Below are positions 396 to 43,555 of a stretch of DNA of 64,000 nt, piece after piece. Both the position numbers and the translations under genes were made by a program. Every line of letters begins with the position of its first letter. The first letter of the stretch is position 1. The DNA comes from Candidatus Vogelbacteria bacterium RIFOXYD1_FULL_46_19 (GTDB lineage: Bacteria > Patescibacteriota > Minisyncoccia > Phycocordibacterales > XYD1-FULL-46-19): positions 70,020-134,019 of the forward strand of contig MHTK01000002.1 in assembly GCA_001824825.1 (NCBI GenBank), in the 5' to 3' direction. Below the pieces are notes generated by a model. The model was given only the letters and a program-made list of their open reading frames with translations, did no database searches and was not told the origin of the DNA.

Positions 396-2208
396 TACCG
401 GGCGAGGATTGCATTTTTAACTCATCTTTGGCTTTTTTGATAGAGAGTAGTTGGGATGGGTCGGAAGTAATAATCTGGTCTTCGGTATAAGAGGCAATAA
501 TTTTAATCGCCACCCGCTTCAGGCCGGCAAAAAAGATTCCTTCACCCACATTAGACTCCAACAGTAAGAATTTTTCTTCATCAGTTAGATTGAAAGTTTG
601 TTGGATTAGGTCGATTGAAGCTGGCGACTGTTTGAGGAGGAGTTGGAGGGAGGAGTTGGTGATAATTGGTGTTCCATAAGGGCTACGGAGGAAGTCCCCT
701 ACGTCTTGGGTGATAGTGGCGACACCCAAGTAGTATTTACGACCTCGCTTGACCAAGGAGAAGAGAAAAGAGGCAGTGTCCTCGGCCTTCATCATCCACC
801 AAGCCTCATCCACCACCATGAGGCGCTTTTTTAAATTACGGCGAATAGTGTTCCAAATGTGGTGCATCACAATGTACATAGCGACCGGCTTCAAATCGTC
901 TTCCATGTCTCGAACGGAAAAGACCACAAATTGTTTATTGATATCCACGTTGGTTGGCTTATTCAAAAAGCCCGACCAGGTGCCCTGGGTGTATTTAGCC
1001 AGACGCTGGGCCAGGGACTCCCCGCCTTCCATCCCCGCCAAAACTAATTCCAGGTCAGACAAAAGTGGGACCGGTTTGTTGGTAAAGTCGGTGCTGGGGG
1101 TAATATCTTTGAGGGCGTAAGTCTCGGAAATGGCATTGTCTATAATCGAGTCCTCTTCCGGGGTTAAGCCCCCAAGCATAATACGCATCAAGCCGACTAG
1201 GTTGATAATATTAGACCGCAAGACGTCGGCCGGAGCCTCGTCTTCTCGCGGAAAAGGTAGATCAAACGGGTTGATATGATGCTCTGATGACAAAGAAATA
1301 TTGAAATAGCGTCCGCCCACAGCTTCGGCTAAAAATTCATACTCTCGCTCCGGGTCGATGACAATAACGTCGATACCGTACATTAAGCTACGTAAGAGCT
1401 CTAACTTGGTGGCATAAGATTTGCCGGAACCAGACTTGGCAAAAGTGACCGAGTTGTAGTTTTCAAGGGAAAAGCGATCAAAGAGAACGAGGGACGAGTT
1501 GTGGCGGTTGACGCCGTAGAGGATCCCCTGATTGGAGGTGAGGTCGAAAGATACAAAAGGGAAAAGGCTAGATAAGGGCGAGGAGTTGAGTTTGGTGTGG
1601 ATAGATAAAACATCATCACCAAGAGGGGCTACACTCTGGAACCCTTCTTGTTGTTGAAAGAGGGCCGGTTTAATGTAAACCAGCTTGGCGTCTAAAATAG
1701 ACTTGATTTCGGACTCAGTCAGGTCCAACTCTTCTTTGTCAGCCCCGTAAATGGTGATATAGACGCCAATATCAAAAATTCTTTCCTGGGCTTGCTGAAG
1801 CTGGTCGCGCAGAGTTTCAATATCGGAGTAGGCTGTATCCAAAATAGGATCCCGGACAAAACCTCGTTCTTCCTTAATACTAATCTGACTTTCTACCTCG
1901 GCTAATTTTTTTTGTAAATCACGCAAGGCGGTCCCAGTATCGATAGGGTGGATAAAAATTGACACATCGAACACCTTATCTAGGTTGATGATCGGTGAAA
2001 ACCATTCTTCGGTTAAAAAACGTGGATAAGAGATAATAAAGAAGGTGCGGGCCATCTTGCTACCCAAGCTCACTTGATTGGGGGTGATACGTAGAGCCGA
2101 CGGCGCAATAATGTCACGGAGCTCCAGTACCCCCATATCGTAGATATCTTGGGGCATCACCGGGTTGATGTTTGGAGTATTTTTTTCTTTTTTATTAAGT
2201 GGCCACAT
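388..2208 (-). CDS. VirB4/TraE/PrgJ-like type IV secretion ATPase, core ATPase part (606 aa)
   Basis: Walker A KSGSGKS, Walker B MVVDEAWW (DEAW signature of VirB4 family), N-terminal YPRFLTEEWFSPII resembles conserved VirB4 linker; directly follows in same frame the N-domain ORF 2212..2856. Confidence 0.8.
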   Translation of the reverse strand: MWPLNKKEKNTPNINPVMPQDIYDMGVLELRDIIAPSALRITPNQVSLGSKMARTFFIISYPRFLTEEWFSPIINLDKVFDVSIFIHPIDTGTALRDLQKKLAEVESQISIKEERGFVRDPILDTAYSDIETLRDQLQQAQERIFDIGVYITIYGADKEELDLTESEIKSILDAKLVYIKPALFQQQEGFQSVAPLGDDVLSIHTKLNSSPLSSLFPFVSFDLTSNQGILYGVNRHNSSLVLFDRFSLENYNSVTFAKSGSGKSYATKLELLRSLMYGIDVIVIDPEREYEFLAEAVGGRYFNISLSSEHHINPFDLPFPREDEAPADVLRSNIINLVGLMRIMLGGLTPEEDSIIDNAISETYALKDITPSTDFTNKPVPLLSDLELVLAGMEGGESLAQRLAKYTQGTWSGFLNKPTNVDINKQFVVFSVRDMEDDLKPVAMYIVMHHIWNTIRRNLKKRLMVVDEAWWMMKAEDTASFLFSLVKRGRKYYLGVATITQDVGDFLRSPYGTPIITNSSLQLLLKQSPASIDLIQQTFNLTDEEKFLLLESNVGEGIFFAGLKRVAIKIIASYTEDQIITSDPSQLLSIKKAKDELKMQSSPGNV

Positions 2209-34490: not shown

Positions 34491-34906
34491 AGGGCTATAG
34501 TAGCATAAAAGAGTTATTTTTGCAAGTAAACCGTACATAATTAGCTTAGGTAAAATAAAGGCCGATCCAGTTTGGGTATAGGGGAGGCTGGAGCGGCCTT
34601 ACTCATTGCTGTGCTGTGTAGACCTTTTTTGTCCGGTGTTAGGTGACTGGAAGGTATACGCTTTGAGTATTCCTATTTTACCTTTATTGGTTAGGCTTGT
34701 CAATCCCCCTCATATGGAATGATTCCGCTGACTGGTACCCCCAGGTTTCTCTGCGCTCAAAAGAGCAAAGCCATTCCATGTTTTTTTTGGGGGGGGTGTA
34801 CACCCCCCTGTAAATGTGCTCTAGGAGGGTCCTTAGAGTGGTAGTTTGTCTTGAAGTTGTAATATTGTGCGACTCTTTCTATACTGAATCAACAAAACTA
34901 CTAAAT

Positions 34907-35818
34907 ATGAAACTCATTGAACAACAGAAGCAAGAATTTCTCGACTACTTAGAGATTGAAAAGGGGCGGAGCTTGAAGACTCGCAGTAGTTATGATCGCT
35001 ATTTAAGCCTTTTTTTTAAGCAAACGAAAATCTCGTCCCCGACTGATATTGATGAGAATCTACTTAGAGAGTTTCGTTTGTGGTTGAATCGCCAGCCCGG
35101 TACGACCGGCACCTTGAAAAAAAATACCCAAAATTATTATTTAATTGCTCTTAGAACTTTTTTGAAGTACTTGGCGAGGCGGGGTGTTCCTTCCCTCTCG
35201 CCAGAGCGGATTGAACTGGCTAAAACGCCTGGTCGGGAGATTGATCTCTTAAATGAGGTGGAACTCGGCCGGCTACTTACTATGCCGGCCGACCAAGACG
35301 AAAAAAGTTTGAGAGATAAGGCTATTTTGGAGCTATTGTTTTCGACCGGCCTTCGGGTGTCCGAGTTAACCGGCTTAAACCGTGATTCCATTGACTTGTC
35401 TCGCGACGAGTTTAGTGTGCGAGGGAAGGGTGAAAAAGTGCGGCTGGTATTTTTGTCGCTCGACGCCAAAGAAGCTATTAAGACTTATTTAAAAAAACGA
35501 GTTGATATTGAAGAGGCTCTATTTGTGAGTTTAAAAAATAAAGTCGGTGATGCTCCGACTCGCCTCACTTCTCGTAGTGTGGAAAGAATAGTGAAGTTTT
35601 ACGCTACGAAGGCGGGTATTGGCAGTAAGGTTACCCCGCACACCATTAGGCATAGTTTTGCGACTGACCTCTTACAAAATGGGGCTGATATCCGCTCGGT
35701 GCAAGCTATGTTGGGCCACTCGAGCGTGGCCACTACCCAAATATATACTCACGTGACCGACAAGCACTTACGAGAGATTCATCAGAAATTTCACAATCGT
35801 AAAAATACTGGCTCTTAA
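34907..35818 (+). CDS. tyrosine site-specific recombinase, XerC/XerD family
   Basis: N-terminal FLDYLEIEKGRSLKTRSSYDRYL core-binding domain and C-terminal HTIRHSFATDLLQNGADIRSVQAMLGHSSVATTQIYTHV (R..H..R...Y); start at MKLIEQQKQ. Confidence 0.85.
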   Translation: MKLIEQQKQEFLDYLEIEKGRSLKTRSSYDRYLSLFFKQTKISSPTDIDENLLREFRLWLNRQPGTTGTLKKNTQNYYLIALRTFLKYLARRGVPSLSPERIELAKTPGREIDLLNEVELGRLLTMPADQDEKSLRDKAILELLFSTGLRVSELTGLNRDSIDLSRDEFSVRGKGEKVRLVFLSLDAKEAIKTYLKKRVDIEEALFVSLKNKVGDAPTRLTSRSVERIVKFYATKAGIGSKVTPHTIRHSFATDLLQNGADIRSVQAMLGHSSVATTQIYTHVTDKHLREIHQKFHNRKNTGS

Positions 35819-37708: not shown

Positions 37709-37790
37709 CTAATGGCCATAGAATAGCGTGGAATTGAAAAAAAAGCGAATTTTTTAGGTTGTTTACTCTCGAGGAATAGTAAGTATTATA

Positions 37791-37989
37791 TGTGCGGGTA
37801 GGGAGAATCGGTCAGGAATATCTTGCCCTCCGTCGAGGACAAGATTTCACGACCCTGGCTCACCTGTTTTTCTTGCTAGAAAAACATAGTTCCGCCTTTC
37901 GATTCTCCACGCAAGTAAAGCAGTTTACTTGCTCATTCCGTCACTAAAACCACAAAAAACCAGGTTAAAACCTGGTTTTTTGTGGTTAG
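37791..37989 (-). repeat. tRNA-Gly trailer module copy A: terminator + ~150-nt structured core + 18-19-nt direct repeat of tRNA-Gly(GCC) 3' end
   Basis: Reverse complement of 43354..43555 is near-identical (150-nt core 100% identical); 37793-37810 tgcgggtagggagaatcg repeats tRNA 3' end at 37990-38007. Confidence 0.8.
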
Positions 37990-38060
37990 TGCGGGTAGGG
38001 AGAATCGAACTCCCGACTCGTCCTTGGCAAGGACGTGTTCTACCACTAAACCATACCCGC
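37990..38060 (-). tRNA. tRNA-Gly (anticodon GCC)
   Basis: Manual fold: acceptor GCGGGTA/TACCCGC, anticodon stem CGTCC/GGACG loop TTGCCAA, T arm GGGAG-TTCGATT-CTCCC, discriminator A. Confidence 0.8.
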
Positions 38061-39520: not shown

Positions 39521-39546
39521 GGGACGTGGTGTAACGGCTAACATTT
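39521..39546 (+). repeat. partial copy of tRNA-Pro 5' half (acceptor-5'/D-arm, 26 nt)
   Basis: gggacgtggtgtaacggctaacatt identical to positions 2-27 of tRNA-Pro at 39576..39648 but followed by sequence that cannot complete a cloverleaf. Confidence 0.7.
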
Positions 39547-39575
39547 TTGGTTTGCCTGTCCGCCAAAGCCAGAGC

Positions 39576-39648
39576 CGGGACGTGGTGTAACGGCTAACAT
39601 TCTCGGTTTGGGACCGAGCGATTCCGGGTTCGAATCCCGGCGTCCCGA
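39576..39648 (+). tRNA. tRNA-Pro (anticodon TGG)
   Basis: Manual fold: acceptor CGGGACG/CGTCCCG, D stem GTGT/ACAT, anticodon stem CTCGG/CCGAG loop TTTGGGA (G37), T arm CCGGG-TTCGAAT-CCCGG, discriminator A. Confidence 0.8.
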
Positions 39649-39669
39649 AAGGGGGCGATGGCAGGTGGG

Positions 39670-39707
39670 GGACCGAGCGATTCCGAGTTCGAATCTCGGC
39701 GTCCCGA
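39670..39707 (+). repeat. partial copy of tRNA-Pro 3' half (anticodon-stem 3' strand through discriminator, 38 nt) with compensatory T-stem substitutions
   Basis: ggaccgagcgattccgAgttcgaatcTcggcgtcccga vs tRNA ggaccgagcgattccgGgttcgaatcCcggcgtcccga; the two differences keep the T stem paired. Confidence 0.75.
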
Positions 39708-39757
39708 CAAAAAAACCACCAAAGACTCCGCTTAAGCGGGGTCTTTGGTGGTTTTAT
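39708..39757. terminator. strong bidirectional intrinsic terminator after tRNA-Pro cluster
   Basis: A7 - accaccaaagactccgc ttaa gcggggtctttggtggt - T4; 17-bp stem. Confidence 0.7.
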
Positions 39758-43220: not shown

Positions 43221-43282
43221 ATTTTCAGATTGAAACGGCCGAGCAATTTTGCTAGTATGCCTGGTGTTACTCTGTAACATAT

Positions 43283-43353
43283 GCGGGATTAGTTAAATGG
43301 TATAATATCAGTTTTCCAAACTGAGGTTGGGAGTTCGATTCTCCCATCCCGCA
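43283..43353 (+). tRNA. tRNA-Gly (anticodon TCC)
   Basis: Manual fold: acceptor GCGGGAT/ATCCCGC, D stem GTTA/TAAT, anticodon stem TCAGT/ACTGA loop TTTCCAA, T arm GGGAG-TTCGATT-CTCCC, discriminator A. Confidence 0.75.
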
Positions 43354-43555
43354 CAAACCACAAAAGACCGGATTTTAACCTGGTCTTTTTTTGGTTTTAG
43401 TGACGGAATGAGCAAGTAAACTGCTTTACTTGCGTGGAGAATCGAAAGGCGGAACTATGTTTTTCTAGCAAGAAAAACAGGTGAGCCAGGGTCGTGAAAT
43501 CTTGTCCTCGACGGAGGGCAAGATATTCCTGACCGATTCTCCCATCCCGCACAAA
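43354..43555 (+). repeat. tRNA-Gly trailer module copy B: terminator + ~150-nt structured core + 22-nt direct repeat of tRNA-Gly(TCC) 3' end
   Basis: 43534-43555 cgattctcccatcccgcacaaa = 43336-43357; core identical to reverse complement of 37811-37960. Confidence 0.8.

Follow-up and report, generated by a model that had tools for sequence, protein, structure and literature searches.

A structured, apparently undescribed element of about 150 nucleotides behind tRNA genes of Patescibacteria and Elusimicrobia, with arms complementary to the 3' end of the adjacent tRNA

In Candidatus Vogelbacteria RIFOXYD1_FULL_46_19, the gene for tRNA-Gly(TCC) (43283-43354, plus strand; coordinates refer to the window, the whole stretch of 64,000 nucleotides (nt) that was analysed) is followed by a non-coding insert of 198 nt, at the far end of which the last part of the tRNA appears a second time. 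Integration into tRNA genes classically leaves a direct repeat of the tRNA 3' end that begins in the T loop, and the locus raises the question of whether the insert is a trace of such an event or an RNA structure in its own right. A sequence-only reading had offered both answers: an attP-like arm with sites for an integrase or IHF, and a structured RNA read in the same direction as the tRNA. Comparison with other genomes places the insert in a family of structured elements of about 150 nt, here called modules, which stand behind tRNA and transfer-messenger RNA (tmRNA) genes, are spread across Patescibacteria and Elusimicrobia, and are apparently undescribed.

The module behind tRNA-Gly(TCC) and its family

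The repeat at tRNA-Gly(TCC) is 22 nt long and exact. Its proximal copy, CGATTCTCCCATCCCGCACAAA (43336-43357), consists of tRNA nt 56-74 followed by AAA, and is identical to the distal copy at 43534-43555; an 18-mer taken from it has four matches against 0.02 expected. All features of this locus lie on the plus strand. After the tRNA comes a hairpin that resembles an intrinsic terminator, with a 10-bp stem (43362-43389) and a T run that extends it to 43392, then a stretch of 141 nt, and then the distal repeat. The A/T flanks of the spacer hairpin lengthen the palindrome toward the tRNA end on one side and toward the first arm of the module on the other, and such terminator hairpins lie outside the conserved module. 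Arm 1, gtgacggaatga (43400-43411), forms the 5' strand of helix P1 and, apart from bulges, is the antisense of both the distal copy and nt 65-74 of the tRNA. Hairpin 1, gcaagtaaa-ctgc-tttacttgc (43412-43433), branches off between the arms; its core, caagtaaa-ctgc-tttacttg, spans 43413-43432, and the stem reaches 9 bp if g43412 and c43433 are counted. Arm 2, gu followed by GGAGAAUCG (43434-43444), is the 5' strand of helix P3 and is antisense to tRNA nt 56-64, that is, to the 3' half of the T loop and the 3' strand of the T stem. The two arms together thus have as their target the last 19 nt of the tRNA, from C56 to C74 (43336-43354). The remainder of the module comprises a junction AAA with helix P4 (GGC/GCC, covarying), a GGA/GA internal loop and variable hairpin 2 (43445-43489; gtttttct-agca-agaaaaac at 43459-43478), and helix P5 (the GGUCG/CUGAC region, with a conserved G-U) with variable hairpin 3 (43490-43533; atcttgtcctc-gacg-gagggcaagat at 43499-43524), before the distal copy of nt 56-74 plus AAA.

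The three tetraloop hairpins of the sequence-only reading are all present, as is the U-G wobble in the third stem, where a single t-g occurs. That reading had also noted that segment cgtggagaatcg (43433-43444) is complementary to cgattctcc in the T arm, and both this complement and the distal 22-nt repeat are found. The predicted fold of this copy of the module has a free energy of -70.9 kcal/mol (z = -7.8), and none of 200 shuffled sequences was as stable; the opposite strand reaches -65.0 kcal/mol (z = -6.9).

A scan of metagenomes with a pattern that joins arm 2, across a gap, to the first part of the repeat returned 14 loci, at each of which a module lies directly 3' of a tRNA-Gly gene (GCC, TCC or CCC) on the same strand and the repeat equals the acceptor sequence of its own tRNA. 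A covariance model built from 13 of these loci revealed, in the same loci, further modules behind tRNA-Arg and tRNA-Pro, with arms and repeats that fit those tRNAs. When the species genomes of GTDB were searched with the hairpin-1 pattern, at least 120 loci were found; among the matches listed, nearly all belong to Patescibacteria (Paceibacterota classes, Saccharibacteria and Woesebacteria) and Elusimicrobia, and hairpin 1 has almost the same sequence in both. The covariance model recognized about 150 modules on the fetched loci. They follow 105 of the 199 tRNAs that have enough downstream sequence, a share that is inflated because the loci were picked for containing a module, and all 20 amino-acid types are represented; three modules follow tmRNA genes. 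Each module measures about 130-180 nt and is encoded on the strand of its tRNA or tmRNA, 3' of that gene.

Most modules end, like the one described above, in a sense copy of the tRNA segment. About one fifth, referred to as type 2, directly abut the tRNA and have no repeat; the two arm positions form pairs between themselves or with the trailer right after the tRNA, and some of these modules lie between two tRNAs of one operon. At one locus (L024, 1959-2630, minus strand), a tRNA-Asp with a group I intron at 35/36 is followed by a terminator and two type-2 modules in tandem.

The sequence-only reading had recognized no known RNA family here, and the Rfam searches bear this out. At gathering scores, Rfam 15 matched the four tRNAs of the window and no family over the module, and at E <= 10 the segment 43260-43620 gave only spurious sub-threshold matches there. 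Searches of 18 further module loci returned tRNAs, tmRNAs, one LOOT RNA and one group I intron, none of which overlaps a module. The LOOT RNA (RF03000, 71 bits; L071, 2057-2175, minus strand) lies about 100 nt downstream of a tmRNA and its module, and was rejected as a relative since it is unrelated in sequence and structure. Full-text literature searches, with subscription journals outside their coverage, turned up no description of the module family. The closest paper describes group I introns in the anticodon loops of Patescibacteria tRNAs (Nakagawa et al. 2026, PMC13011429), which by their position are a different thing. An intron was also ruled out for the module itself by its size, by Rfam and by the splice-site bases: the core has about 110 nt where a group I intron has at least 200, and in place of the intron's terminal G most Patescibacteria units have a C just ahead of the distal copy.

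Fold, strand and complementarity to the tRNA

The family consensus can be written from the 5' end as arm 1, AG, hairpin 1 (GCAAGCAAA CUGC UUUGCUUGC), GU, arm 2 and GAAAG, followed by P4 with its GGA/GA internal loop and variable hairpin 2, P5 with its conserved G-U and variable hairpin 3, GUGAC, and finally tRNA nt 56-74. Hairpin 1 and a three-way junction with the two variable hairpins thus make up the core. In a MAFFT alignment of 13 sequences, which was not fitted to any structure, RNAalifold predicts 44 base pairs, 28 of which show compensatory changes. In a larger alignment of 98 sequences, fitted to the covariance model and therefore biased in favour of the structure, double changes occur in 43 of the 44 pairs, and 92.8% of the cells are paired, compared with 65% after column shuffling and 41-43% when the partners are slid. 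Hairpin 1 (helix 2) is the most conserved hairpin of the family, with 99.4% of cells paired, and the P5 pair 233-385 of the family alignment occurs as GC in 37 sequences, GU in 21 and AU in 16. On unsystematic inspection by eye, no covariation was seen for a kissing or pseudoknot interaction of the CUGC loop of hairpin 1 with the junction motif GCAG/GGAG.

The same comparison resolves the strand. In 87 of 92 modules the fold is more stable on the tRNA-sense strand (mean difference -7.1 kcal/mol, p = 7e-16), and G-U or U-G pairs number 115 across the modules as against 43 A-C or C-A combinations. Downstream terminators were uninformative as a strand test because the spacer hairpins are bidirectional. 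The fold of the module is real, and it is read on the tRNA strand. The single wobble from which the functional strand had originally been deduced thus agrees with a bias across the family, and the structured-RNA reading is supported at the sequence level by covariation, strand energies and wobble pairs.

The arms are what ties each module to its tRNA. Across the family, arm 2 is antisense to tRNA nt 56-64 and arm 1 to nt 65-74 and often also to the trailer CAA, so that together they are antisense to the contiguous last ~21 nt, from C56 in the T loop to the discriminator and a few trailer bases, and the point at which hairpin 1 branches off is the exact boundary between acceptor stem and T stem. 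Arm 2 covaries with the T-arm sequence among modules that follow tRNAs for Gly, Arg, Pro, Leu, Lys and His as well as tmRNA. The duplexes of both arms with the last 24 nt of the adjacent tRNA have a median summed energy of -30.4 kcal/mol, compared with -17.3 kcal/mol for tRNAs of other amino acids, and in 69 of 100 modules the cognate duplex lies beyond the 5th percentile of the non-cognate values. The closing stem that had been suggested as a possibility is real, covarying with the T arm of each tRNA, and the suggested pairing with the tRNA itself has turned out to be the best-conserved property of the module.

The distal copy behaves differently. Of the 53 modules with a detected repeat, 26 have its start at T-loop C56. 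The repeat usually ends 0-6 nt past the tRNA, while in 13 modules it runs at least 10 nt past it, into the terminator or the next tandem unit. An exact 18-nt copy of the tRNA end is retained in only 26 of 96 modules; tails frequently carry internal deletions, and in 14 modules the copy is essentially lost. An exact copy is missing from 52 type-1 modules; in 49 of these the tRNA is the better partner for the arms, and in none is the tail, with a median difference of -8.3 kcal/mol (p = 4e-10), in a comparison that allowed the tail a three-fold longer search window. That the arms match the tRNA even where the tail has decayed means that selection or homogenization keeps them complementary to the tRNA 3' end, and that the distal copy is dispensable.

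For both modules of the window, nearest-neighbour calculations that leave out tRNA tertiary structure favour a swapped fold of the whole unit by 11-16 kcal/mol. In this predicted fold the arms are paired to the 3' strand of the tRNA itself, the tRNA body is completed by the distal copy, and the spacer hairpin grows longer.

The second copy and the surroundings in the window

The window holds two copies of the module, copy B behind tRNA-Gly(TCC), described above, and copy A behind tRNA-Gly(GCC) (37989-38060, minus strand). Copy A lies on the minus strand at 37789-37958, inverted relative to B and 5.4 kb away. Following its tRNA are a spacer hairpin (37945-37988, with arms 37948-37966 and 37969-37987), the module (37811-37944, with arm 1 at 37933-37944, hairpin 1 at 37911-37932, arm 2 at 37900-37910 and the core at 37811-37899), and the distal copy of the tRNA-Gly(GCC) 3' end, which begins CGATTCTCCCTACCCGCAC (37789-37810). 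The two copies are 100% identical from GGTTTTAGTGACGG, just past the terminator T run, to CGATTCTCCC. Their repeats differ only in a dinucleotide, TA in A and AT in B, which in each case agrees with the copy's own tRNA. The spacer hairpin falls outside the identical block, and here A and B share 87% identity. The earlier claim that the two terminators differ only by compensatory changes is partly right: an A-T to G-C exchange is accompanied by a G-T wobble and an indel.

The identity of the two copies is best explained by gene conversion between the paralogous tRNA-Gly units, with the spacer and the tRNA-specific dinucleotide having escaped homogenization. By eye, arm 1 of copy A (37933-37944, ..GGAAUG) fits the CAU of the TCC tRNA 3' strand and not the CUA of the GCC tRNA, a match that would suggest that the arms and core of A were converted from B. 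The calculated duplex of this arm is nearly equal with the two tRNAs, at -10.5 kcal/mol for TCC and -10.7 kcal/mol for GCC, so that the energies favour neither direction of conversion.

The sole promoter candidate for the unit of tRNA-Gly(TCC) and module B is a site upstream of the tRNA (43230-43258, plus strand; TTGAAA-17-TAGTAT with TG). The neighbourhood consists of housekeeping genes, among them those for a CCA-adding enzyme, VKOR, NUDIX, RNase Y and RRM proteins. A gene for an XerC/D-type tyrosine recombinase (Phage_integrase and SAM_1 domains; 34814-35818, plus strand) lies 2 kb from copy A; it is the window's only recombinase gene and probably a housekeeping gene as well. A 51-amino-acid open reading frame antisense to the module (43397-43552, minus strand, and 37792-37947, plus strand) covers the whole module and starts within the repeat; it was rejected as unsupported, and gene callers may label it a hypothetical protein.

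Several independent assemblies end inside module B, as a repeat would lead one to expect. In three other assemblies of the same organism (L002, L003 and L004), contigs stop about 180-190 nt past the NUDIX gene, which is within the module, and contig ends next to tRNA genes in such genomes may often mark modules.

Some further features of the tRNA surroundings were observed. The hairpins that trail tRNAs at 37947-37987, 39712-39756 and 43355-43397 have common flanks, AAACCAC...GTGGTTT, with different stems, which suggests a genome-specific style of bidirectional terminator. At 39521-39707, tRNA-Pro(TGG) (39576-39648) is nested between two partial copies, one of its own 5' half (39521-39554, 94%) and one of its 3' half (39664-39707, 91%) with GGG at the anticodon position. 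The arrangement has the appearance of one tRNA-Pro inside the anticodon region of another, and folding of the complete segment gives nothing remarkable (z = -1.6). At another locus (L013, about 1950-2130, minus strand), three tandem repeats of about 58 nt precede tRNA-Arg(TCG), each comprising the first 12 nt of the tRNA and a leader with the motif ACGAAGTGAG, which recurs in terminator-less spacers between tRNAs and modules.

An RNA at the tRNA 3' end and its alternatives

With the family, its fold, its strand and the tRNA-specific complementarity of its arms established, a tentative preference, slightly short of an even chance, goes to an RNA element on read-through or co-transcripts of the tRNA, the arms of which capture either the tRNA 3' strand or its spare copy. 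A transcript made by read-through of the tRNA or by co-transcription would carry the module, and three strands would then compete within it, namely the arms, the distal copy and the 3' strand of the tRNA. If the arms closed on the distal copy, the module would be self-contained and the tRNA free; if they closed on the tRNA 3' strand, the distal copy would complete the tRNA body in their place. The outcome would be a cis-acting clamp, or a switch for processing or quality control, on the precursor 3' end. The module would thus act as RNA, in cis, with the distal copy as a decoy, and we infer that it is expressed, that it has partner enzymes and that the cell benefits.

Several observations weigh against such a role. 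In about half of the units, and in those of the window, tRNA and module are separated by a terminator-like hairpin, module B lacks a sigma-70-like promoter in front of it, and intactness of the distal copy is related to the absence of a spacer terminator only as a trend (13 of 28 versus 15 of 50, p = 0.13). In many units, by comparison, there is no terminator between tRNA and module, or the module lies between two tRNAs. The presence of modules among the tRNAs of related genomes is patchy, tRNA-Arg(TCG) having one in L007 and none in L013 or in the window, which is odd for a core function in tRNA maturation. Nearest-neighbour energies ignore the tertiary structure of the tRNA, and covariation would be just as expected from a fold of single-stranded DNA, as would much of the strand bias. 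Arm 1, moreover, pairs through the discriminator (A73-C74) and often the trailer, so that the base helix is not a free-ended tRNA mimic; the idea of such a mimic as a processing handle is thereby weakened.

A bolder version, which we hold to be unlikely, is that the module is a bacterial guide RNA for tRNA 3' ends, in which the arms programme a conserved core for the last 21 nt of a specific tRNA. The core would act as a ribozyme or with an unlinked protein, on the tRNA, its precursor or its gene. It might exchange the 3' segment at U55|C56 for the spare copy, in a reaction resembling splicing or repair, or the arms might direct the element's homing to tRNA genes. Such a reaction would have the distal copy as its substrate or product.

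The strongest competitor, which is somewhat less improbable than a guide RNA yet still doubtful, sees the module as a selfish, non-autonomous insertion element that targets tRNA and tmRNA genes at their 3' ends. The inserted unit would consist of a replacement for tRNA nt 56-76, the spacer with its terminator, the arms and the core, entering at U55|C56 and leaving the displaced original 3' end as a distal repeat free to decay; the arms would recognize the target by RNA or single-stranded DNA pairing, and the mover would be a host or unlinked recombinase or the element's own RNA chemistry. The fixed start and variable 3' extent of the repeat fit this well, as does the decay of the distal copy while the arms stay matched to the tRNA, and tRNA and tmRNA genes together are a target set typical of integrating elements. 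Movement is also suggested by tandem arrays, among them one with a truncated second unit (L083), by a difference in copy number between two loci with otherwise identical flanks (two units in L012, one in L020), by mosaic or converted copies within genomes (Gly/Arg in L007; A and B in the window), and by a distribution that is patchy across tRNAs and disjunct between Patescibacteria and Elusimicrobia in spite of a nearly identical hairpin 1. Against it, no integrase or transposase recurs beside about 100 modules, whose 319 neighbouring open reading frames cluster into housekeeping families, and 2.9 million viral contigs, phages and plasmids contain no match. A comparison of flanks at 140 loci yielded same-genome duplicates, the L012/L020 difference and syntenic filled sites only, with no empty site, and a search for sister loci by way of the neighbouring NUDIX and VKOR proteins returned only the locus itself or near-identical ones. 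Modules at different tRNAs of one genome are usually old: mostly diverged, with cores 37-88% identical and spacers unrelated, they keep their fold, which implies selection in place. The module of tRNA-Gly(TCC) is syntenic where the adjacent HU gene is only 70% identical, and its hairpins differ in sequence and still pair. The two copies of the window have identical arms and cores but different spacers and proximal tRNA ends, a pattern at odds with recent movement of the proposed unit, and a copy arriving at a different tRNA would break that tRNA. The att-site idea with which the locus was first associated is a narrower form of insertion, a remnant attL/attR pair of an integrase-borne island or prophage deleted to about 200 bp. 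The repeat of the tRNA 3' end from the T loop has the required geometry, but the recurrence of one covarying 150-nt fold behind 20 types of tRNA in over 100 species, its constant architecture in place of random deletion end-points, arms antisense to the tRNA, and the lack of an integrase near the modules or of any match among the phages searched leave it next to no probability, and we consider it refuted. An attP arm with integrase or IHF sites is likewise not supported, given that no integrase recurs near the modules, that viral contigs, phages and plasmids give no match, and that the core of orthologous loci is under structural selection.

It is also conceivable, if distinctly improbable, that the structure matters in DNA and has no RNA role, either as a folded single-strand site for recombination or replication, in the manner of the attC of integrons or the attP hairpins of CTX phage, or as a palindrome kept uniform by conversion between its arms, one of them the tRNA arm under selection. 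The stretch from tRNA nt 56-76 through the spacer hairpin to arm 1 does form a long palindrome centred on the terminator, structure kept without sequence conservation and with a strand bias is known from attC sites, and an XerC/D-type recombinase lies 2 kb from copy A. The conserved unpaired junction nucleotides and the conserved G-U pair, however, are what one would sooner expect of RNA; units of type 2 lack a repeat and lie within tRNA operons; and there is neither a cassette or array context nor a linked recombinase, the Xer gene being probably housekeeping.

Set beside known systems, the module family appears to lie far from all of them. It shares with the att sites of tRNA and tmRNA integrases the repeat that runs from the T loop to or past the 3' end, the use of both kinds of host gene and the occurrence of tandem units; it differs in measuring about 150-200 nt without cargo or integrase, in its absence from phage and plasmid collections, and in having a covarying, strand-biased fold with two tRNA-antisense arms. 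The arrangement of guide, hairpin and guide on a contiguous, adjacently encoded target resembles, in its way of working only, the H/ACA pocket and the archaeal pre-tRNA-Trp intron, a guide for modification in cis. The consensus, however, contains no ACA/H or C/D boxes and no K-turn, the element is bacterial and has no known partner enzyme, no target nucleotide is left unpaired at the junction, and pairing over 21 nt would unfold the tRNA, so that the module is a functional analogy to an H/ACA guide and not a member of that family. Among tRNA mimics (the tRNA-like domain of tmRNA, YrlA/Y RNA, mascRNA and viral tRNA-like structures), a base helix made from the 3' strand of acceptor and T stem is a common feature, and hairpin 1 branches off at the position of the D/anticodon arm. 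Unlike those mimics, the module has no T loop, since nt 56-60 are paired to arm 2 and the core takes the position of the loop; its discriminator and trailer are paired, leaving no free NCCA end; its sequence is copied from whichever tRNA adjoins; and Rfam models of the mimics give no match.

A primer-binding site of retroviruses and long-terminal-repeat retrotransposons likewise pairs with one specific tRNA over its last ~18-21 nt, from the T loop on. In the module, by contrast, the complement is split by a hairpin and fits the genomic trailer CAA and not the mature CCA, no reverse transcriptase lies nearby, and the element is encoded directly behind the tRNA gene. Like tRNA spacer RNAs of the 3' external transcribed spacer (3'ETS)-leuZ type and like the repetitive elements REP, BIME and ERIC, the modules are non-coding, multi-copy, hairpin-bearing and located in trailers or intergenic spacers, yet they are multi-helix structures with conserved junctions and neighbour-specific arms, they duplicate the tRNA end, and they are conserved across phyla. 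The short fixed duplication of REP or of MITE (miniature inverted-repeat transposable element) sequences was not found, the duplication here being 17 to 45 nt or more in length and away from the left end. A terminal inverted repeat is present in split form, about 20 nt long and made up of the arms on one side and the distal copy on the other, with a sequence set by the neighbouring tRNA, and copies within one genome, at the core identities given above, are not the many near-identical ones of MITE or REP families.

If the family is what the sequences suggest, a substantial share of the tRNA genes of Patescibacteria and Elusimicrobia would have an unannotated companion of about 150 nt, with base-pairing specificity for the 3' third of its own tRNA. 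Genomes known for extreme reduction would then carry a new class of tRNA-linked RNA, which could account for recurrent assembly breaks beside tRNA genes. The module would represent a three-strand switch of natural origin and perhaps a principle by which guide RNAs address tRNA ends, and it would open either the processing and policing of tRNA precursors or the homing of an element without genes to testing in these organisms.

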